64,000 nt of DNA from a virus (Duplodnaviria > Caudoviricetes): positions 64,001 to 128,000 of the IMG/VR virus record IMGVR_UViG_3300024493_000235; one strand, given 5' to 3'. The translations under genes and the position numbers were made by a program. The first letter of the stretch is position 1, and the number at the start of each line of letters is the position of its first letter. The notes under the pieces are model-generated. The model made no database searches and was not told the DNA's origin. It saw nothing but the letters and a program-made list of their open reading frames with translations. Below are positions 6,925-30,029 of the stretch, piece by piece.

Positions 6925-7126
6925 GAGAAATTAACCATGGAAAACGACGATCATTTTTTGATACTAAACAACCTTTTTGATTACTATTATAATAATTTAC
7001 AACGCGGGGATTTATTATCTGTGATACGTAACATCATCCTAGGGCCATTACGGCCCTAGGTGTTATTTTTTTGTATAAGTGAAATAAAATTTAAAATATA
7101 TATAATAAAAGATAAGGAGTCCTTTA

Positions 7127-8428
7127 ATGACAAAAGAAGATAAATATATAGTGAAAATGCTTGACTTACTTGAAAGAGATTCTCATTTAGATACACTTAC
7201 AAGGCCCATATTCTCCATCGTTCGAAATGATCCTAAACGTACAACATTTTCAAATAAGGGAATGCACTATACTTACTTAGCTACAATCCTTGATGAAAAC
7301 GGAAAAGTAATTATCGTAATAGACTATGACGGAGATCATTTCGGCAAAGATTACGCTATCGATATGAAAAAAGATATTCGTATCTCTTGCAGACCGAAAG
7401 GATCGAAGTTACTTGTACTCTTATCTAATATGCCGGAATTTCACGTTCAACAATGGATACTTAAATATTTACAGCAAGATGAAAAAACATTCTTCGAAGA
7501 TCGCTTTAAAACGTGGATATCAAGAGGATACTTTTGGTATAAAGATGTAAAAGATTTTAACACTCCCGATATTTTATTAAAAGATTGGAGCAACTTAAAA
7601 CATTTTACACCAAAAACAAGCGACACAAAGTCGTATTCAAATGTTATAAACGGAATTTCAAACATCGGAATGACCCTCATAAAATACTTTCATCCGTCGA
7701 TATATCGTTGTCGTATGAAAGACAGACAAAGCCCTGAAAATATATGGTACCACCAAGATAAAGATGGAAACTTTGATTTGTTGTTACAGATGTTTAATGA
7801 ACACAGAATGTATTTAGATTGGTTCATGTGTTACAGAGTGATCCAAATGTTTGAGACTACAGACGTTGCGCCAAGAATTCCGATATTAACTCCTTCACGA
7901 GCTAAACTATTGCTATATAAATATGCAGGAGAATTTAACGAAATCTTCAATCCATTTTCAGGATTCTCAAGCGTATTATTAGCCGCAACTTCTCTTGGAA
8001 AAAAATACCTTGGCTACGATATCAATCGTACAGTTGTGCACGAATCTCAATGCATGATAGAATGGTTTGAAAAACATAAAATTCCCATTGATGCACACGT
8101 TGACAGAAAAGACGCATTTATTGATAACGACAGCAATAACCCGTTTCAAAATACATCGAATACATACGGTTGTCTATTCTCGTGTCCTCCTAATGGAGAT
8201 ACAGAAATATATTATGACAACATGATACAAGAAGAATTCTCATCATCGTATTCCTGTGAACAATGGGTACAATGGTGTCTTGATACATACAAATGTAAAA
8301 GATACATCTTTGTTGTAGACTCTAGGTGTAATAAGTTTCAAGGATATGTACAAGAAATTCTTACAACTAAAAGAGTTTCAAGATATCCTTTTAGCACACA
8401 TGAGAAAGTGTTGGTGTTTGACAGGTAA
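7127..8428 (+). CDS. degenerate endonuclease-like + DNA methyltransferase-like fusion (paralogue A)
   Basis: IDYDGDHF; FNPFSGFS (motif I variant); SCPPN (motif IV variant); C-terminal HEKVLVFD shared with paralogue B. Confidence 0.7.
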   Translation: MTKEDKYIVKMLDLLERDSHLDTLTRPIFSIVRNDPKRTTFSNKGMHYTYLATILDENGKVIIVIDYDGDHFGKDYAIDMKKDIRISCRPKGSKLLVLLSNMPEFHVQQWILKYLQQDEKTFFEDRFKTWISRGYFWYKDVKDFNTPDILLKDWSNLKHFTPKTSDTKSYSNVINGISNIGMTLIKYFHPSIYRCRMKDRQSPENIWYHQDKDGNFDLLLQMFNEHRMYLDWFMCYRVIQMFETTDVAPRIPILTPSRAKLLLYKYAGEFNEIFNPFSGFSSVLLAATSLGKKYLGYDINRTVVHESQCMIEWFEKHKIPIDAHVDRKDAFIDNDSNNPFQNTSNTYGCLFSCPPNGDTEIYYDNMIQEEFSSSYSCEQWVQWCLDTYKCKRYIFVVDSRCNKFQGYVQEILTTKRVSRYPFSTHEKVLVFDR

Positions 8429-8441
8429 TGGAGGAAAACAC

Positions 8442-9503
8442 ATGATAGCAGACATAATTGTAGGTATGCAATACGGTTCGGAAGGGAAAGGTGCTTTTGT
8501 AAATCACGCATTACAAATGGAAACCGGTTATAATATGTCGATGAGAGTCCAGTCAACACAATCGGGACATACTATATATTTTAAAAATCAAAAATATATA
8601 ATGAGGTCCATTCCTTGTGCATGGGTAAACCCGAATGTCGAATTATTGCTAGGTCCCGGCGCTTTTACAGAAAGGGATATTCTTTTGGATGAAATAAAAA
8701 GTATAAATGGATCTCTTGGAGGAGATGTGCGCGATCGACTTTTTATAGACAAAAGAGTATTTGAAGTTGAGGACCGTGATAAGCGAAAAGAAGCAGATCA
8801 AAAACTTGATAGCAGAATTGGAAGCACAATTCACGGATCAGGTTCCGCACTAAACGAAAAAATATGGAGAAAACGCACAAGAGGTAATAAAAATTTTATC
8901 GAATGGTGCCTTGCAAATAAGATAAATGTCGTTGACACAATAGACCATATACAAAAAGGAACTCTTTTAATAGAAGGATGCCAGGGAGCTATGCTTTCTA
9001 TTCATACATCACCTTTTTATCCGTATGTAACATCCAGAGAAGCCACAGCTTCAGGAATCTTATCAGAATGTGGAATATCCCCACGTGATGTAAGAAATAT
9101 CTTTGGTGTCTTTCGTACATTGCCAATCAGAGTAGGAGGGAACTCAGGACCTACAGGATCAGTTGAAATTACTTGGGAAGAAGTTTCTAGGAGAGCAGGA
9201 TATAATGTAACACCAGAAAAGACTTCCGTTACTGGCAGAATTAGGCGTATCTTCGAGTTCTCATATGATGATATGGCTCACGCTATTAGAGTAAATAAAC
9301 CCACGCACTTAATTATGACCTTTGCAAATTACATCGCTCCTTGTTTTGGAATTGATTCATGGGACAAAATTGACATCAATTCCAAAAGAAACATAGATAC
9401 ATATACATCTGTAGTAAACAAGCTTTGCAAAAATATTACACCTAACAATACTTATGGTATTGTATCAATTAACACAAATCCAATTAATTGGATAGATATC
9501 TAA
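8442..9503 (+). CDS. purZ: PurZ-like adenylosuccinate synthetase family protein (2-aminoadenine pathway)
   Basis: GMQYGSEGKG (Ser in place of the PurA Asp), RTLPIRVGGNSG, TSVTGRIRR, TFANY; 353 aa from the ATG after GGAGG. Confidence 0.75.
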   Translation: MIADIIVGMQYGSEGKGAFVNHALQMETGYNMSMRVQSTQSGHTIYFKNQKYIMRSIPCAWVNPNVELLLGPGAFTERDILLDEIKSINGSLGGDVRDRLFIDKRVFEVEDRDKRKEADQKLDSRIGSTIHGSGSALNEKIWRKRTRGNKNFIEWCLANKINVVDTIDHIQKGTLLIEGCQGAMLSIHTSPFYPYVTSREATASGILSECGISPRDVRNIFGVFRTLPIRVGGNSGPTGSVEITWEEVSRRAGYNVTPEKTSVTGRIRRIFEFSYDDMAHAIRVNKPTHLIMTFANYIAPCFGIDSWDKIDINSKRNIDTYTSVVNKLCKNITPNNTYGIVSINTNPINWIDI

Positions 9504-9593
9504 TTGATAAATAAATAAAACCAAGGGGCCAAATGGCCCCTTGGAGTTTTTCTTTTGACTATTCGCCACCCGATGCTGGAAAGACGCTCATCA
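9504..9593 (+). repeat. relic duplicate of 11695-11767 joined to 11881-11898
   Basis: 38 bp identical between 9543-9580 and 11730-11767. Confidence 0.85.
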
Positions 9594-9653
9594 TTTTTAA
9601 AAATAAATTAGAATATATATAATAATGGTATATTAAATATAAGGAGAATACTT

Positions 9654-11705
9654 TTGAAAGATATGGAGCTTACATGCACTAAATGTAACAAAACATTTTC
9701 ATTAACACGTAACGCATTTTTGAAACGGCAATACAGAGGTGTCGATACATCTCTATGTCAATGGTGTAGTAAAGCACACACAGAATTCAAAGATCATATA
9801 TATGTGCCAAAGTCAGAAAATCATATTTGCCAAAAATGCGGTAAATCCTTTACACTTACAAGAAGTGCATTTAATAAACGGAAATGCAAAAAACAAGATA
9901 CTACATTATGCAATCCGTGCAGAACAACTCAAACTACTTCTGATCGTCACGGATATGCATCTCCGCTTGCAAATCCTAATATATTACAGAAAACAAAAGA
10001 TACAATGCAAGAAAAATACGGTACAACATACGCACTACAGATTAAAGACGTTGAGGGTGTAGGATATCAAAAAGCTGTCACAACATTTCAAGCTAATTAT
10101 CACACTAATGCAGCAAATCCGTTAATGCATGCAGAAACACTTGAAAAAATAAAAGCAACAAATGTGGATAGATATGGAGATGCTAACCCATTGAATAATC
10201 CTGAAGTCAGAGCAAAGCAACAACAAACAATGATTAAACTATATGGAGGAAAACCCCAAGCAGAATCGGAAGAATGTAGAAAAAGAGCACTAGAAGTATT
10301 TCGAACAAGATACGGTCAAAATTGTTATTTGCAGTCTGCTCATTTCTCTGAGAAGATGGTACTAAAATTTGGAACAAGATACCCACAACTTACAACTCAT
10401 AGTAGTAGCAAAGAAGAAAGACATGTGTTCAGCAAAATTGAAGAACTCTTTTATCACGGTTTACTTAAAAATTCCAAATATACATTTATTTACAATGATC
10501 GAGAAAAATATAAAAACAGTGCTTTATTCACTTTCTCTTATGGTGATACCGATCATCCGTGGGACGGAATAGTGCTCAACGAAGATTATAGTATTGCACT
10601 CGTAATCGATTATGATGGTGAATATTATCATGGCGATTATCCTGACTATGATGGCGTACATTCTTCAGAAGAAAGGGATTCTATCAGAATGAAATGTGTT
10701 CCTAAAGATGCTAAGATACTTATCATCTATAAAGATACTCAGGATTACATTAAAGATATCGTTGACATACTTGGTATGGATTACGACGAATGGCTTAATA
10801 AGTTATACAACTATTGTTGTGGTATCGATTTTCCATTCTATCACAATTATTATTACGAAAAACAACTTTTACACAGTTGGAAAGCGCTTGCACTATTTAC
10901 TCCTGAGAAATGTGATAAAAAATCGTGGACAAAGCTCACCCAAGGACGCTCTACACTAGGTGGAAAACTTATTAATTATTTTCACCCGTCTATTTATAAA
11001 TGTCACACCAAAGGAAAAATATCACCATATGATGCATGGTATCATACCGATGAAAATGGTAATCGTGATTTACTTCGTAAATGTATTCGTAATAGAAGTA
11101 TTTATGCAAATTCGTATAAACCATATCGGATACTGCAAGGTTTTAACATTTCTGATATTGCACGAAAAATAACTACATTTTCAGCATCCAGAGCAAAAAT
11201 GTTACTCATAAAATATGCGCAAGAATTTGACCAAATCTTTGATCCTTTTATGGGATTTTCCGGTCGTCTTCTTGGAACTGTGGCTCTTAAAAAAGCATAC
11301 ATAGGAAACGACATAAATAAAACCATTATACAAGAAGCAAAAAATCTTATTAGATGGTTTGAAAGGCATAACATCGAAAATAGAGTTATTTTGACAAACA
11401 ATGATATACAATCGATCCCAAAAGAATATTCGATGCATAACGACGAATGCTTGTTTACGTGTCCTCCATACAAAGATACCGAAATTTGGTACGACGAAGT
11501 ATCAAAGCGAGAGATTAGATCTAATATGACAGCGGAGCAATGGGTTGAATTTTGTCTTGACACATTTAACTGTAAAAGGTATATATTCGTCGTCGATTCA
11601 CGATGTAACAAGTACAACAGCAATGTACAAGAAATATTTGTTAATAGAAGATCTGCAAAATACCATGTAAATCTTCATGAAAAAGTACTTGTTTTTGATA
11701 AATAA
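9654..11705 (+). CDS. Zn-ribbon + YG repeats + endonuclease-like domain + amino-type DNA methyltransferase (paralogue B)
   Basis: CxxC pairs; KYG/RYG repeats; IDYDGEYYHG; FDPFMGFSGRLLG; TCPPY. Confidence 0.75.
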   Translation: MKDMELTCTKCNKTFSLTRNAFLKRQYRGVDTSLCQWCSKAHTEFKDHIYVPKSENHICQKCGKSFTLTRSAFNKRKCKKQDTTLCNPCRTTQTTSDRHGYASPLANPNILQKTKDTMQEKYGTTYALQIKDVEGVGYQKAVTTFQANYHTNAANPLMHAETLEKIKATNVDRYGDANPLNNPEVRAKQQQTMIKLYGGKPQAESEECRKRALEVFRTRYGQNCYLQSAHFSEKMVLKFGTRYPQLTTHSSSKEERHVFSKIEELFYHGLLKNSKYTFIYNDREKYKNSALFTFSYGDTDHPWDGIVLNEDYSIALVIDYDGEYYHGDYPDYDGVHSSEERDSIRMKCVPKDAKILIIYKDTQDYIKDIVDILGMDYDEWLNKLYNYCCGIDFPFYHNYYYEKQLLHSWKALALFTPEKCDKKSWTKLTQGRSTLGGKLINYFHPSIYKCHTKGKISPYDAWYHTDENGNRDLLRKCIRNRSIYANSYKPYRILQGFNISDIARKITTFSASRAKMLLIKYAQEFDQIFDPFMGFSGRLLGTVALKKAYIGNDINKTIIQEAKNLIRWFERHNIENRVILTNNDIQSIPKEYSMHNDECLFTCPPYKDTEIWYDEVSKREIRSNMTAEQWVEFCLDTFNCKRYIFVVDSRCNKYNSNVQEIFVNRRSAKYHVNLHEKVLVFDK

Positions 11706-11745
11706 AACCGAGAGGCCATTTGGCCCCTCGGAGTTTTTCTTTTGA

Positions 11746-12801
11746 CTATTCGCCACCCGATGCTGGAGCAGGATTAAAGCCTGCGGCCATACCATTCTCG
11801 TAGAAACCGGCAGCGCTGTATTGCGTAGCGGCTCCTTGTTGCGGTTCGAGACCTGCAACATTCGGAGCTGTATCATCAGTGCTAGAAAGACGTTCATCAA
11901 CACCGTGCCATACCGAAACACCGAGGTCGAAATTAGAATAGTTGTCAGCATAGAAATTACTCTTTTCGAGTATTACTGCGGCTAAGCTGTTGACAGCGTT
12001 GTTTTCATGGAAGATACCAAAGAACGGAATATCCAGTTCCATCGGAGAATGCTCCCCTTGAGTATACTCGAAGTGACTGTTGGGAACTTGGTTCGGGAAT
12101 GCGCCAAACCATATACAGGCAAACTCGATAGAGTCTAATCCGTAAGCACCGCCTGAGTTATCAGTTAATGCATAAAGGATTATACCTGAATGGTTAATCG
12201 GTGAGAAGCGCAGATTACTTCCGTCGAAGGTCTTACCATGGTATGTACCATAGCCAGAACCTAGATCCGAAATACCGGTTACCCAATATTTTGAAATCTT
12301 ACGGAACATTCCGCCTTGCGTTTCTTGGAATTTGAGATTGAAGTTATTATTCCCTTTCTTGATGCCGGTTGGAACGCTGTAGCTTTCTGCGTTATTACCG
12401 TAAGTAATTTCGGCAGTCTGCAATTCGTAGTTTCCGATACCAGAGAGTCCCTTACACATACGCTCAATCATCCTCTGGCTTAAGCCCCTAATTGAAGGCT
12501 CAAAGAAGCGAGGCATGGAAAGAGCCCAGACACGTCCATAGCCGCCAATGAATGGCTCAATAAAAGGAAGAGTGTCCTGGGTGACGTTGGGAACGCCAAG
12601 GAATATGTTGTTGTTTGCAAAGTCGGGAATTACGTTTCTTGTGTTATCCCAACCGCGAGGGGGAGATCCGCCCCAGTCTATTATGGTTGTTGCGTCGGTG
12701 TAATCTCCAGGAGCCGGGAAGGTTACTTCGGAAGTTCTAAGTCGTCTATCCTCGGCATTACTGCCTTGAACGACAGTTTTTCCATCAAATGTTACAGCCA
12801 T
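11746..12801 (-). CDS. putative tail tube protein
   Basis: 351 aa directly downstream of the sheath gene; tube-like FQE..G, YWVTGI, GAFP pattern; raised GC as in highly expressed genes. Confidence 0.7.
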   Translation of the reverse strand: MAVTFDGKTVVQGSNAEDRRLRTSEVTFPAPGDYTDATTIIDWGGSPPRGWDNTRNVIPDFANNNIFLGVPNVTQDTLPFIEPFIGGYGRVWALSMPRFFEPSIRGLSQRMIERMCKGLSGIGNYELQTAEITYGNNAESYSVPTGIKKGNNNFNLKFQETQGGMFRKISKYWVTGISDLGSGYGTYHGKTFDGSNLRFSPINHSGIILYALTDNSGGAYGLDSIEFACIWFGAFPNQVPNSHFEYTQGEHSPMELDIPFFGIFHENNAVNSLAAVILEKSNFYADNYSNFDLGVSVWHGVDERLSSTDDTAPNVAGLEPQQGAATQYSAAGFYENGMAAGFNPAPASGGE

Positions 12802-12812
12802 GTGTTACCTCC

Positions 12813-14996
12813 TTACCGTGCTGCCACGACGTAGAAGTTCCACGTCTGTATGAAGTCCGTAAACTTCATTTCGATATACAAGGACGCAGCATTATCGTAT
12901 TTGTCCTGCAGCGTCTGCTCTGTTTTGATGGTCATCCTTTCAACCGGGCCGTTCATCTGGAGGTATGCAAGGTCACGTCCTACTTTCTCTTTAGCTTTCA
13001 CCATTGCGATTTCGGGTTTTTCCTCAAAGCGCAGGTCGGTAAGGATTTGCCTTCCCACCCATATCGCTTCACATACAGCATGGCAATTGCGGATAACAGC
13101 GAGATAACTAAGACGTTTAAGATACATTGTCCTAACGCTCATAATGGCGTATTGATTGAGGCGTACTTCTTCAACGTAGTTCATCTGCTCTTTTATGAGC
13201 TCGGTCTTCTGGTCTTCATCAGGATACCAAGAAAGGCTTGTCATGGTTTGTAAGATACCCTTTTCGGTTCCCGCCATCAATCGGTTCGGACCATAGTTCG
13301 CACGAAGCCAAGGAAGCTTAAATGCGATATCGTAGCAATACGTAACGTCAATGTTGCGTCTGTTGTACGCATCCCACGCAACGCCTGATTGCGGCCACAA
13401 TGAAGACTGCCAATCCTGAAGACCGTTAAGAACAGTCTTCTTGTAATTGATGGCGGCAGAACAGCTTGCGATGAATCCGCAGTCGATATATGCCATAACA
13501 TCCAATCTTTTGCGGCAGAAATAAATCATTTCTTTCTTAACAGCATCGACGTTTGCGGCATCAATTACGGCCGATATTTGATACTTATACGGAGAAAGTA
13601 TATTGGAATCTATTTCTCCCGCATAAGCTCTCCTGAAGAGCTCGTTTTTAACGGCGTCATAGGCTTCGTCGGCTTCTTTCTTACTTGCGTAATACTTAAG
13701 GTTGTCATTTACAGACGGATCTTTTGTTCCAACGACGTAGCGATCCCTATCGAGATCCCCATCATCTCCACCAACAAAAAAGTTATCACTTGCAGAAAGA
13801 TCCATATCGGGTTGTTTCTTGTTGTCAAAGAAAACAAGGTCTTCTTCGGCGGGGTTTATAAACCTTACGTACGGTTTTCCACTTCTGTCAGCAAGAGAAA
13901 TAAAATCGATAAACCTCGGATCCTGTGCTTCAGAGAGAATAAGAGTTCCAGTGGCATCTTTTACTTCGTCACAGTAAGGCTCGAATTGCCTTTGCAAACT
14001 TTCCCATGTATCATCGGATGTGAGAATTCCAATGTTGTCAATTTTCTTGATGTAATCCGTATCGGTGATTTTGGTGTCGATGAATTCAGAAACTGTCCCT
14101 GTGGAATCCACTGCGTCAGGATTAAACGCTACGGATATTGTGCTTCCTGTGGCGGCAAGAGCGATATTTCCTTTATCATCCTTTTCAAAGATGCTGTAGA
14201 AATACCGTCTGCCATCTTCGAGATCTTCTTCCCTTGTTTGATCGAGAGTTAAAGATACCGAATAGTTGTTTCCGAATTTACCGGATCCGCGGAGTTTGAA
14301 AATTGTAAGATAATTGTTTGTCCATCCGTTACCGGCATCGGAAGTTGTTCCGTTAAGGCGCGTTAAAAGCTGCTTTAACATAAGGGGTTCTGAAAGGCCT
14401 AATGTGGCCATATTCAAGAAGCTATCGGGAACACCGCAAATTGTCGGGGATATCTTGAGAGTCGGAATCTGAAGATTGACATCACCCAATTCTTGGAAGT
14501 TGTCTGTTAAATAAACAGAACCTGCTACAGCGCCTCCAGCGGGGACGACAGTAGTTTCCACTGTGCATTTGTATAATTTGCCGTTAAATGACCCGATTTG
14601 ATTTAATTTGAATTCTTCGCCTTCGCCTATAAGTCTGGCCGAAGCGCTCGTAAGAGTAACTGTCGAGGGTTTTGTGCGAATATTAAGAACTGCAAACGCA
14701 GGTTTAGCATTATCTGCAGTAACCCGCAACCCTAGTAACGTCCCACCACCTTTCAGCCATTGAATGCCGTTATAGATGTGCTGTCCATCCCTTGTGATAC
14801 GCGGGACACCAGAACGCCGGACATAATCCGTTTCGTTAAGGAACCTTCGTACTTTACCGTCCATCCCTTTCTGTGAGATATACGGCTGGAATAAGACAAA
14901 CCCTATAGGGGTAGTCGTCACTTCATCCACGATCGAATTATCGATAATCGCGGTAGTTACTCTGGAGTGTATATAATTATTAGAGACATCAATCAT
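12813..14996 (-). CDS. putative tail sheath protein
   Basis: 727 aa; GGTLLGLRVT, GGDDG, RLDVMAYID and sheath-type C-terminus; late promoter upstream. Confidence 0.8.
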   Translation of the reverse strand: MIDVSNNYIHSRVTTAIIDNSIVDEVTTTPIGFVLFQPYISQKGMDGKVRRFLNETDYVRRSGVPRITRDGQHIYNGIQWLKGGGTLLGLRVTADNAKPAFAVLNIRTKPSTVTLTSASARLIGEGEEFKLNQIGSFNGKLYKCTVETTVVPAGGAVAGSVYLTDNFQELGDVNLQIPTLKISPTICGVPDSFLNMATLGLSEPLMLKQLLTRLNGTTSDAGNGWTNNYLTIFKLRGSGKFGNNYSVSLTLDQTREEDLEDGRRYFYSIFEKDDKGNIALAATGSTISVAFNPDAVDSTGTVSEFIDTKITDTDYIKKIDNIGILTSDDTWESLQRQFEPYCDEVKDATGTLILSEAQDPRFIDFISLADRSGKPYVRFINPAEEDLVFFDNKKQPDMDLSASDNFFVGGDDGDLDRDRYVVGTKDPSVNDNLKYYASKKEADEAYDAVKNELFRRAYAGEIDSNILSPYKYQISAVIDAANVDAVKKEMIYFCRKRLDVMAYIDCGFIASCSAAINYKKTVLNGLQDWQSSLWPQSGVAWDAYNRRNIDVTYCYDIAFKLPWLRANYGPNRLMAGTEKGILQTMTSLSWYPDEDQKTELIKEQMNYVEEVRLNQYAIMSVRTMYLKRLSYLAVIRNCHAVCEAIWVGRQILTDLRFEEKPEIAMVKAKEKVGRDLAYLQMNGPVERMTIKTEQTLQDKYDNAASLYIEMKFTDFIQTWNFYVVAAR

Positions 14997-23866: not shown

Positions 23867-24499
23867 TTACACTAAAGGATACTTAGCATTTTCTGGTCTA
23901 TCTGTTAATGCGAGTTTTCTTAAAGCAGCATTCCTGTCTACACCACCAGCTTCATCTGCTTGTTTTTCGGACCATCGAGTTTTGTAGTACCAATAGTGCC
24001 TATCGTATATACACCAAGCTACATGGAACCACCTATCCCACATGTTGCAAAACACCGAACTGTATACACCAACAGTTGGCAGGTATAGCCACCCTAATGT
24101 TTCTGATTGTCCTATTTTATGTCCTTTTTCATGTCGTATGGTATATAAATCATGGGCTGTATTTAAACAGATATATTTTCCCATTGAAAACCCTGAAACA
24201 TTACCAAGTATTTTATCATTTTTATGGGAACAATAATCTGCTACATAAATTTTAAAGCCGGTTAATTCTTCCATTCCGTATAGGAATTTTAATTCTCTCT
24301 GACTTAGCACAATAAGTCTTTCTTTCCATAAACGACTCATTCCATAACCCAATGCGTTCTGAGGTAATTGCCACACCCATTCAAATAAAAACTTACCAAC
24401 CTTTTTGGCGTAAAGTTTTATATAATCCAGTGCAGTTTTAAAAAATGGCAATATTTTGGTAGATAAAAATATACCGATTTTTGTAAATAGATTTTTCAT
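23867..24499 (-). CDS. late-expressed HExxH-containing protein
   Basis: WQLPQN, RHEKGH, LGWLYLP; late promoter 24513-24524 and GGAGG RBS. Confidence 0.65.
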   Translation of the reverse strand: MKNLFTKIGIFLSTKILPFFKTALDYIKLYAKKVGKFLFEWVWQLPQNALGYGMSRLWKERLIVLSQRELKFLYGMEELTGFKIYVADYCSHKNDKILGNVSGFSMGKYICLNTAHDLYTIRHEKGHKIGQSETLGWLYLPTVGVYSSVFCNMWDRWFHVAWCIYDRHYWYYKTRWSEKQADEAGGVDRNAALRKLALTDRPENAKYPLV

Positions 24500-24574
24500 A
24501 TATACCTCCATTTACAAAAATGTTTTTCTACGATCCTATCGTATCTACATAAATCTTAAATATATATCATATTA

Positions 24575-27827: not shown

Positions 27828-27980
27828 TTTTGTCTCCTTACCTCAATGATATATATTTATTTCAAAGGATCATACATAACAATCATAGATATTTTTCATA
27901 GTTATGATAGACCTAATATATCGTAAATACAAAGGTTAGGAGTATATATCATTTTGATATGTAAAAGGAGAATTACAAAA

Positions 27981-30029
27981 ATGGCAAGACCGAGAAGTTT
28001 TGAGCCAGGAAAATCTAAGCATTGCAAGTACCGGACTTTTGGGAAAACGTGCACATCGTGTGGAAAAACGTTTTTAATCACTAGCCGCAACATCTTACGT
28101 CGTCAAGGAAGAAAACGGCCGACAGATATATGCGAGGTATGTCTTAGGGCCCAAGACAACCAAACAAGATTTGGAGAAAACTACGAAGAATGGAAAGATG
28201 ACGTAAACGCAAAAAGAAAGAAAACCGTACAAAAACATTACGGCGTTGATCATCAAATGCGCAGCAAAAAAGTTAAACAGAAAGTTGTTGCAACAACACG
28301 TAAATGCTACGGAGTTGACAATGTTGCCCATTGTCCAGAAATCGTCGAAAAACGAAAAGCGACAATGAGGAAACGACATGGTGTGGATTATTCGTTATCA
28401 TCGGCAGTTCTAAGAAAAAAGGCACGACAAACGACGTTTAAAAGATTTGGCGTAGAAAATGTAGCATTACTTCCTGAGAATCAAGCAAAATTGCATTCTG
28501 CAGAAACACAAGCAAAACGTAAAGCTACTATGTTAACACGATTTGGTGTCGACTCGATGTTTAAGTTGAAAAATTTTCACGACATGAGAAGAAAAGGATG
28601 CATCAGAAATAGCGGAGAACCAGAACCTCAACTTAGAAAAAGTGGAAAGTCAGAAGCAGAAAAATCTATCACATCGAAACTGATGTTTATTTGCACAGAA
28701 GGGTTGTTAAAAGACAAACACCTTGTTGTATGCGATGATCCAAAAGATAATACAACCTGTATTACTGTACATGGTGTATTATATAGCCATAGTTGGGACA
28801 TCACAATCAGAGATCAATCTGGCAGTTTAATTCTTGTAATAGATTACGACGGTGATTATTATCATGGGGAAAAGTTTGCTGATTATGATGCTATCATACA
28901 AGCCGAATACAAAGATACCGAACGGTTTATGACAATACCAAAAGGTGTAATGTGGCACATCATAAATGAAAACGGTTTCGATACAGCCATTGAAGATGTC
29001 GTAAAGATTCTTGGATACGATTACTCCGGATTTTTGAAAAGCCTGTATGACTTTGCATGCTCCATTCAATTCCCATTCTGCAAAGACTATCCAGAATACT
29101 ATAATGATAAAACGTTATTAGGAAGTTGGCATAGACTCTGTAATTATGGCGAAGAAGACATAACAAAACCGCGATATAAATATTACAACTATGACAAACT
29201 TGAAAAGGTTGCGGACAAGTCCCGTACAGGAGGGAAACTTATTAACTATTTCCACCCATCTATTTACAAATGTAGATCTCGTGATAAGCCATCTCCATAT
29301 GAAGCATGGCACCATGTTGATGAAAATGGGGATCGCAACTTGTTAATGAAGGCAATAAAAAACCGCATGATATATTCTGCACGATATCAGCCGTTTAGAA
29401 TTCTTCAAGGCTTTTCTAATTCGTATATTGCACCGAAAGTAACGGTATTTTCTCCATCACGAGCACGACTCTATTTGCACAAATATGCACGAAAATTCAA
29501 TACAGTATTTGATCCGTTTATGGGTTATTCAGGTCGTATGCTTGGTGCATTATCTCTTGAAAAAAATTACATCGGATCGGATATAAATCCGACCATTTTT
29601 GAAGAAGCTGGAGACATCGTCAAATGGTTGGACAAAAATAAAGAACTCGCCGCCGATGTTTGCATTACATGCAAGGATATTTTAACATACGAAAGAGGTA
29701 CACAATACGAATGCTTATTCACATGTCCTCCGTATAAAGATCTTGAAATATGGTGGGATGATTTGACACAGACGGAAATACGATCAAACAATACTGCTGA
29801 AGAATGGGTTATGTATTGTCTTGAAATGTTTGAGTGTACGCGATACATTTTTGTTGTTGATGCTCGTTGTAACAAGTTTCAACCATACGTTGTTCATATT
29901 TGTAATTCTATAATAGAAAACAAATATAACTCGTATAAACGGGAAAAAGTTCTTGTTATAGATTTTGAAGACAGGAACAGAATGGGGTTTGGACAACAAA
30001 ATTTCAAATTTAGTATCGTTAAAGAATAA
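27981..30029 (+). CDS. Zn-ribbon + YG repeats + endonuclease-like domain + DNA methyltransferase (paralogue C)
   Basis: HYGVD/RFGVE repeats; IDYDGDYYHG; FDPFMGYSGRMLG; TCPPY. Confidence 0.75.
   Translation: MARPRSFEPGKSKHCKYRTFGKTCTSCGKTFLITSRNILRRQGRKRPTDICEVCLRAQDNQTRFGENYEEWKDDVNAKRKKTVQKHYGVDHQMRSKKVKQKVVATTRKCYGVDNVAHCPEIVEKRKATMRKRHGVDYSLSSAVLRKKARQTTFKRFGVENVALLPENQAKLHSAETQAKRKATMLTRFGVDSMFKLKNFHDMRRKGCIRNSGEPEPQLRKSGKSEAEKSITSKLMFICTEGLLKDKHLVVCDDPKDNTTCITVHGVLYSHSWDITIRDQSGSLILVIDYDGDYYHGEKFADYDAIIQAEYKDTERFMTIPKGVMWHIINENGFDTAIEDVVKILGYDYSGFLKSLYDFACSIQFPFCKDYPEYYNDKTLLGSWHRLCNYGEEDITKPRYKYYNYDKLEKVADKSRTGGKLINYFHPSIYKCRSRDKPSPYEAWHHVDENGDRNLLMKAIKNRMIYSARYQPFRILQGFSNSYIAPKVTVFSPSRARLYLHKYARKFNTVFDPFMGYSGRMLGALSLEKNYIGSDINPTIFEEAGDIVKWLDKNKELAADVCITCKDILTYERGTQYECLFTCPPYKDLEIWWDDLTQTEIRSNNTAEEWVMYCLEMFECTRYIFVVDARCNKFQPYVVHICNSIIENKYNSYKREKVLVIDFEDRNRMGFGQQNFKFSIVKE

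Follow-up and report, generated by a model that had tools for sequence, protein, structure and literature searches.

Whether a jumbo phage can make 2-aminoadenine (Z) for its DNA is a question raised by a purZ-like gene in a contig from an uncultured phage. In small phages, PurZ starts the replacement of adenine by Z in DNA, and what is known of Z-DNA comes from small siphophages and podophages, whose toolkit is fixed and consists either of PurZ with DatZ, MazZ and DpoZ, or of PurZ0 with DutZ and DmtZ. The stretch analysed here (the window, 64,000 nucleotides) comprises bases 64001-128000 of the 268,442-bp IMG/VR contig IMGVR_UViG_3300024493_000235, and positions are those of the window unless the genome is named. 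The purZ-like gene lies at 8442-9503 on the plus strand, and its product (P0001, 353 amino acids) is a short PurA-family synthetase carrying a serine, Ser13, at a catalytic position. Taking together its open reading frame (ORF), family matches, alignment, tree and structural model, we think it probable that P0001 uses dGMP, aspartate and ATP to make succino-amino-deoxyadenylate (dSMP), so that some Z would enter the phage DNA.

The longest ORF across the site runs from 8346 to 9503. The chosen start is the ATG at 8442, with a GGAGG ribosome-binding site (8430-8434, plus strand) eight bases upstream, and the stop codon is at 9501-9503. The 353-amino-acid protein is an intact member of the adenylosuccinate synthetase superfamily. 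It matched Pfam PF00709 (Adenylsucc_synt) with an E-value of 4e-38 (131.6 bits against a gathering threshold of 27) and phrog_1211, the PHROG that contains PurZ, with 1e-60, and it keeps 68 of the 68 alignment columns that are invariant across its 19 closest relatives. The best sequence match among solved structures was the short PurA of Pyrococcus horikoshii (1e-38); the values for PurZ0 of a Gordonia phage (7VF6), PurZ of phiVC8 (6FM1), PurZ of S-2L and PurA of E. coli were 5e-36, 2e-35, 2e-23 and 3e-21, respectively. An AlphaFold model of P0001 (pLDDT 86, pTM 0.87) resembled P. horikoshii PurA, phiVC8 PurZ and PurZ0 to a similar degree, with template modelling (TM) scores of 0.81-0.87, and S-2L PurZ somewhat less (0.76). 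Against phiVC8 PurZ bound to dGMP and ATP the TM score was 0.82-0.84. The short PurA fold is thus common to P0001, to PurZ of phiVC8 (DgsS; 6FM1/6FKO, TM 0.82/0.84 to 6FKO) and S-2L (7ODX), and to the archaeal enzyme (2D7U/5K7X; TM 0.83/0.87). The latter, however, has the motif GDEGKG with Asp13, and holds GTP and IMP in its structure 5K7X. A PADLOC search gave no defence-system match for P0001.

A first-pass annotation, made from the letters of the stretch, had pointed to a Ser in place of the catalytic Asp of PurA, to a loop, RTLPIRVGGNSG, of PurZ or PurZ0 rather than PurA character, and to a segment, TFANY, resembling the ATP-type pocket of PurZ and not the TKLD of PurA. All three features were reproduced when P0001 was aligned to PurA of E. 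coli, three classic PurZ, two PurZ0 and relatives from metagenomes. With the invariant columns and the superposition of the model, the agreement is well outside coincidence. Ser13 (in GMQYGSEGKG) aligns with the catalytic Asp13 of E. coli PurA and with Ser14 of phiVC8 PurZ. The loop RTLPIRVGGNSG aligns with PFPIRVAGNSG of PurZ0 and HPIRVGGTSG of phiVC8, where PurA has STRVGAGPF, and TFANY aligns with NFCNY of phiVC8 and NFAQY of S-2L, where PurA has TKLD and PurZ0 has MADQ. Asp13 is retained by 99% of canonical PurA sequences, while Ser was found in 147 out of 147 phage PurZ-group proteins (PMC12884076). Residues Y11, S13 and T261 of P0001 correspond to F12, S14 and T262 of phiVC8 PurZ, positions with roles described in bioRxiv 10.1101/2025.10.22.683976, and the residues adjoining the guanine 2-amino group, an aromatic and a Thr, therefore match PurZ. 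F294, N296 and Y297 correspond to F295, N297 and Y298 of phiVC8, which with F306 and Q308 of S-2L form the adenine-type nucleoside triphosphate pocket (PMC8342488). P0001 accordingly shares with the phiVC8 and S-2L enzymes the Ser for Asp13, the aromatic residue and Thr, the PIRV loop and a Phe/Asn/Tyr adenine pocket that predicts use of ATP or dATP. Since its nucleotide pockets are of PurZ type, P0001 can be read as an ATP-using, guanine-nucleotide-accepting enzyme, and its active-site residues support assignment to the PurZ type rather than the PurA type.

PurZ0, which shares with P0001 the motif GSE(G/A)KG with Ser13 and the loop PIRVxGNSG (Gordonia phages Archimedes and Ghobes, Arthrobacter phage Wayne; 7VF6), has MADQ in place of TFANY. 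The nucleotide preferences of PurZ0 and PurZ are given in PMC12884076 as 'ATP and GTP, respectively'; this order conflicts with the ATP- and dATP-bound PurZ structures and with a use of GTP by PurZ0, and we relied on the structures. The combination of signature residues in P0001 had been described as mixed, but it proved to be no oddity. Among 251 aligned homologues, drawn from a collection of 5.8 billion proteins and a library of 1.8 billion representatives, Ser13/Glu14 with Phe/Tyr was the commonest combination, the pattern Y-S-E-P-W-T-F-Y at eight diagnostic positions being present in 75.

The family models and the phylogeny both set P0001 apart from canonical PurA. Its best NCBIfam model was that of PurZ (NF038379, succino-amino-deoxyadenylate synthase), and it fell below every PurA equivalog cut-off, with 143 against 395.6 bits for TIGR00184, 122 against 402 for NF002223 and 206 against 368 for NF003295. 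The phylogeny of PurA, PurZ and PurZ0 that the first-pass annotation had proposed as a check was run with IQ-TREE (LG+C20 with posterior mean site frequencies, quick search) on 63 sequences rooted on four canonical PurAs. All Ser-type short forms, P0001 included, formed one clade with 100% support, apart from canonical PurA. Within it the classic PurZ and the PurZ0 (Archimedes and Benry) each formed a clade with 100% support, and P0001 fell outside both, in a clade of 20 metagenomic sequences that again had 100% support. P0001 was nested in a small Ser-Glu subgroup (with P0002, P0003, P0004 and P0021) within mostly Ser-Thr sequences. A FastTree phylogeny of all 251 sequences gave the same picture, with a query clade of 57. 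Forcing the query clade and classic PurZ together cost 7.8 log-likelihood units (approximately unbiased test, p-AU 0.36), so that the deep branching is weakly separated and a sister relation to PurZ, with which P0001 has about 30% identity, is compatible with the data. On these trees, the clade of P0001 is placed as a third lineage outside the curated PurZ and PurZ0. Two other metagenomic sequences, P0133 and P0233, have Asp at the Ser13 position and were nested inside the Ser-type clade with strong support, which points to a reversion, or to a change of substrate, within the family.

Members of the P0001 clade with long contigs (from IMG/VR and Logan) belong to phages of 46-57 kb that encode PolIII alpha. 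They share 43-62% identity with P0001 (P0002-P0048), together with the Gln-containing loop, Ser13 and the F..Y pocket, but their purZ-like gene differs in setting, as it heads or joins a replication module. The order of this module is purZ-like gene, a gene of about 320 amino acids (SSB-like), RecA, primase-helicase, ADK-like kinase, dUTPase and PolIII alpha. A YfbR-like HD protein that matches the 'dATP triphosphohydrolase' phrog_7076 (3e-14) is part of the module in the phage of P0015, and a DUF4406/NDT-like protein that matches the nucleoside 2-deoxyribosyltransferase (NDT) phrog_355 (8e-24) is part of it in the phages of P0004 and P0021. Helpers that clear adenine are known in two kinds, DatZ-type dATPases and NDT-like genes (PMC12884076). 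Because the modules of its relatives hold one or the other, there is indirect evidence that the clade may work in Z synthesis. The gene of about 320 amino acids was considered as a metabolic partner and rejected as unsupported; it had no family matches, and its counterpart in Bacillus phage vB_BpsS-140 looks SSB-like. No homologue of it was found in the jumbo phage, which shares with the module of P0004's phage only a weak dUTPase match and one protein of unknown function. The latter is a 160-amino-acid product in P0004's phage (L019:18275-18757), encoded between the ADK-like kinase and the dUTPase, and is homologous (4e-11) to a 214-amino-acid protein encoded at 23867-24511 on the minus strand of the window.

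The closest relative, P0002 (59-61% identity), has a different setting. Its gene (contig region L021:724-9392) lies beside an OLD-family TOPRIM ATPase and a UvrD helicase, which form a Gabija-like pair, with a DUF1016/YhcG nuclease and an integrase at the same locus. This gene content marks the locus as integrative or as a defence island rather than as a replication module.

Several observations weigh against a PurZ role for P0001, some of them in the protein itself. Its P-loop (GSEGKG) has Glu14 as in PurA and PurZ0, where PurZ has Thr (GSTGKG). Arg266 occupies the position of E. coli Arg303, which we take to contact the 2'-OH of IMP, and which is Lys or Leu in the characterised PurZ and PurZ0. 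In the GxNAGHT loop (MPNAGHT in PurZ), P0001 has Gln in place of Asn (RVQSTQSGHT). This replacement had been recognised from the start, but the view of it as atypical did not hold, as QS[IT]Q[AS]GHT (RVQS[IT]Q[AS]GHT in full) is common to every member of P0001's own clade. On NF038379 P0001 scored 209.3 bits, below the curated cut-off of 300, and three clade relatives scored 198-228; the controls, Vibrio phage H1 (phiVC8-like), S-2L and Archimedes PurZ0, gave 397, 350 and 325 bits. The 206 bits obtained with the archaeal-type PurA model NF003295 are nearly a tie with the PurZ score. The earlier description of P0001 as PurZ-like is upheld for the active site, while the protein is placed outside the curated PurZ and PurZ0.

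Other points on the same side come from the genome. The partners DatZ, MazZ and DpoZ had been reported as unrecognisable in the window, and this absence extends to the whole 268-kb contig. The search for an HD dATPase and DUF550 proposed in the first-pass annotation was carried out as part of six-frame family searches of the contig, which detected no HD (PF01966), DUF550 (PF04447) or MazG (PF03819) and no DUF5664, NDT or Lyase_1 (PurB); there was also no PolA or PrimPol match. Searches of the contig with phmmer, using DatZ, MazZ and PrimPol of S-2L and the Vibrio phage H1 cluster with its DpoZ, gave no match. When Archimedes PurB, DpoZ and gp47-55 and the module genes of three clade relatives were used, the main match was the dUTPase of the jumbo phage. 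Every PurZ0 genome carries a dUTPase-family gene (PMC12884076), and in this respect the jumbo phage resembles them. Its dUTPase, however, has no special likeness to the Dut-like gp55 of Archimedes (20 bits, against 65 bits to solved canonical dUTPases), and keeps recognisable conserved dUTPase motifs in alignment to the solved enzymes. A role for it as DutZ, a Dut-like dATP/dGTP diphosphatase, is conceivable but unsupported, the protein being canonical-looking by score. The genome differs from those with PurZ0 also in that no DmtZ/NDT, DUF5664 or PolA was found in it, and from those with PurZ in being a 268-kb myophage genome with a family B polymerase. No PF00709 gene was present in the four isolated jumbo relatives searched. 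Among the GenBank phage matches listed, PurZ-level matches (about 30% identity) came only from genomes of at most 83 kb, and a 735-kb uncultured phage had only a 25%-identity match to P0001. The IMG/VR contigs found with clade relatives were all of 53 kb or less, and PurZ was not connected with jumbo phages in the literature searched.

In the scheme that we infer for the substrate, the timing of expression and any Z in virion DNA, the purZ-like gene would be an early gene in second place within a self-contained unit, and P0001 would join dGMP to aspartate with ATP or dATP donating the phosphate. The host adenylosuccinate lyase (PurB) and host kinases would then convert dSMP to dZMP and dZTP, and the divergent family B DNA polymerase of the phage would place Z opposite T. 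As the contig lacks PurB, the host lyase would be needed to process the products of both the phage PurC and the PurZ-like enzyme. Because no dATP remover, dGTP-to-dGMP enzyme or Z-selective polymerase is recognisable, we would expect replacement of A by Z to be partial, by analogy with the Z cluster of S-2L, incomplete versions of which also yielded substitution in E. coli, but at rates below that of the full triad (PMC8342488). This expectation would change if non-homologous helpers exist or lie in the unassembled part of the genome; the contig is linear, with a CheckV completeness estimate of 91%, and about 9% of the genome is possibly unassembled. That a nucleus-type AR9/PBS1-like phage replaces much or all of its adenine by Z, with only an orphan third-lineage PurZ and a family B polymerase, seems improbable to us; with no known dATP-clearing enzyme, such replacement would imply unknown helpers or selection by the polymerase.

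The alternative that survives best retains the chemistry but changes the substrate. P0001 might act on another 6-oxopurine nucleotide, ribo-GMP, dIMP or dXMP, to give a product other than dSMP; in the ribo-GMP version, 2-amino-AMP/ZTP would be made and then reduced by the triphosphate-type class II ribonucleotide reductase (RNR) of the phage. The clade stands apart from all PurZ and PurZ0 that have been assayed, its monophosphate loop and the Arg at the Arg303 position differ as described above, and the phage has genes for PurC (232 bits, with a cut-off of 190) and for a reductase of RTPR-like type (TIGR02505, 286 bits). The residues near the guanine 2-amino group nevertheless match PurZ, clade relatives adjoin deoxynucleotide-specific helpers of the DatZ or NDT kind, and cellular homologues adjoin a deoxynucleoside kinase. 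A change of substrate is on this evidence unlikely, though worth keeping in mind, and we retain dGMP as the probable substrate.

The surroundings of the gene bear on whether it is used by the phage at all. Co-transcription behind a methyltransferase-like gene had been claimed for it, and the layout of the locus agrees with this. A terminator-like hairpin with a GGCC core and a T run (7038-7060, plus strand) closes the preceding unit, and a promoter-like motif, TATATATAAT (7097-7106, plus strand), lies 21 nucleotides upstream of the first cistron, MT1 (7127-8428, plus strand). MT1 encodes a 433-amino-acid methyltransferase-like protein with weak DNA-methyltransferase matches (PHROGs, PADLOC), in which motif I reads FNPFSGFSS and motif IV is degenerate (CPPN). 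Between the MT1 stop and the purZ-like start there are 13 nucleotides and no terminator, and a strong terminator, a hairpin of 10 bp (eight of them GC) with a T run (9521-9544, plus strand), closes the unit. A position of the purZ-like gene as second cistron of a promoter-to-terminator unit behind MT1 thus fits the sequence.

Downstream, a 70-nucleotide direct repeat brackets a second cassette. Copy 1 (9511-9580) begins eight nucleotides after the purZ stop and comprises the terminator and a relic 3′ end of a minus-strand virion gene. Copy 2 (11698-11767), 93% identical, comprises the end of MT2, a bidirectional terminator and the true 3′ end of the gene at 11746-12801. MT2 (9654-11705, plus strand) is a 683-amino-acid paralogue of MT1 with a Zn-ribbon/homing-endonuclease-like N-terminus (DUF7487) and a methyltransferase-like C-terminus, and is preceded by a second TATATATAAT motif at 9614; MT1 and MT2 each have their own motif and terminator. 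Both are paralogous to a gene at 27954-30029 (E-values between 1e-74 and 1e-139), which has the same type of N-terminus as MT2. Few members of the family occur outside this genome: five homologues were found, and PF01555 is present in one of these. The repeat and the paralogous cassettes imply that the locus has been rearranged around these cassettes, and MT1 looks like a mobile or rearranging cassette and not like a known Z-pathway partner.

The purZ-like gene could accordingly be a passenger, or a decaying gene, brought by these cassettes, or could serve to manipulate nucleotide pools by draining dGMP or dATP or by making dZTP that harms host or rival replication. Such a role would be in keeping with the flanking paralogues and duplication scar, with the absence of the gene from the four isolated relatives and of helper genes from the contig, and with the ability of S-2L PurZ to consume dATP (PMC8342488). 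It is opposed by the state of the gene, which looks maintained, with an intact ORF, all clade-invariant residues, its own ribosome-binding site, a promoter motif and a terminator in a tidy unit. Composition points the same way. The gene has a GC content of 36.5% and a third-position GC content (GC3) of 26%, fully adapted to the genome (36.8%; GC3 33 +/- 6) and unlike its nearest relatives (GC3 36-90%), so that it is not a recent arrival. We regard a passenger or pool role as distinctly unlikely. That P0001 is an ordinary auxiliary PurA, converting IMP to adenylosuccinate and boosting AMP supply together with the phage PurC, is very improbable, for although it is a PF00709 member whose best PDB sequence match is P. 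horikoshii PurA and whose archaeal PurA score nearly ties with that for PurZ, and although PurC and RNR show an investment in purine and dNTP supply that makes purine boosting conceivable and counts against dSMP synthesis, Asp13 has become Ser and the guanine-binding TKLD has become TFANY, every PurA equivalog cut-off was failed, the protein lies inside the fully supported Ser-type clade, and four of five cellular genomes checked with Ser-type copies also keep a separate canonical PurA.

The genome was described from the start as that of an AR9-like jumbo myophage, and this assignment stands. The contig encodes a tail sheath (12813-14996 of the window, minus strand) and major head and virion proteins, and by the tail sheath its nearest isolates are Staphylococcus phage S6 and relatives, Yersinia phage phiR1-37, Bacillus phage PBS1 and Listeria phage LPJP1 (24-30% identity), which classes it as an AR9/PBS1/phiR1-37-like jumbo myophage. 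No near-identical DNA was found among GenBank phages, and searching IMG/VR by tail-sheath patterns gave no close relatives. A Pfam inventory of 171 further genes of at least 110 amino acids, with five very long genes and short ORFs outside the scan, included the divergent family B DNA polymerase, topoisomerase II, helicases, tubulin, a chaperonin, RNA polymerase pieces, a dUTPase, the RTPR-like class II reductase and PurC, the last above its equivalog cut-off. The dUTPase (genome 167071-167598), which resembles canonical dUTPases, forms an operon with the RTPR-like RNR and PurC (genome 167071-170899, outside the window).

The nearest isolates S6, phiR1-37, PBS1 and LPJP1 presumably all have DNA containing deoxyuridine (dU-DNA), although the genome studied here has an intact dUTPase. 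For part of this group dU-DNA is documented (PMC12697855). If Z replaced much or all of the adenine, the DNA of the jumbo phage might even combine Z with U. No dCMP/dCTP-deaminase-family gene was found in the six-frame family search of the whole contig. An NCS2 nucleobase permease is encoded at genome 208209-209423, outside the window and deep within the phage genome, where it adjoins the phage chaperonin; it was closest to uracil permease (365 bits, where the equivalog cut-off is 477) and passed the cut-off of the NCS2 superfamily. Two proteins encoded within genome 1-90 kb match DUF488-N3a, a Pfam domain with no assigned function ('active DUF488-N3 subclade').

Short PurA-like genes with Ser13 or Gly13 are also widespread in bacterial and archaeal genomes, with at least 573 stretches matched. 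An example is the locus of Mariprofundus erugo (L051:5964-10721), and others are L054, L072, L088, L039 and L062 and further loci among L026-L105. In 79 such loci, a dCTP-deaminase-like neighbour of about 340-370 amino acids was present in 50 and a deoxynucleoside kinase in 22. About 40 have an upstream protein of about 690 amino acids with RNase_H_2 and P-loop kinase domains, and some have PurB or DUF7002. The cellular gene had no PADLOC match, and a literature search gave no description of the operon. From its composition, the gene set looks like a self-contained deoxypurine-conversion operon.

A third PurZ lineage, missed by the curated model, would extend Z-DNA biology, and a jumbo phage with a family B replicase would extend its setting beyond 83 kb, the largest genome with a PurZ-level match among the GenBank matches listed. 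A PurZ that has no known pool-editing partner tests how much of the toolkit is needed. If P0001 is inactive, it would mark a limit to predicting Z-genomes from a purZ match alone, which matters for the annotation of metagenomes; if it is active, it would be a compact ATP-type candidate for engineering the incorporation of dZ.

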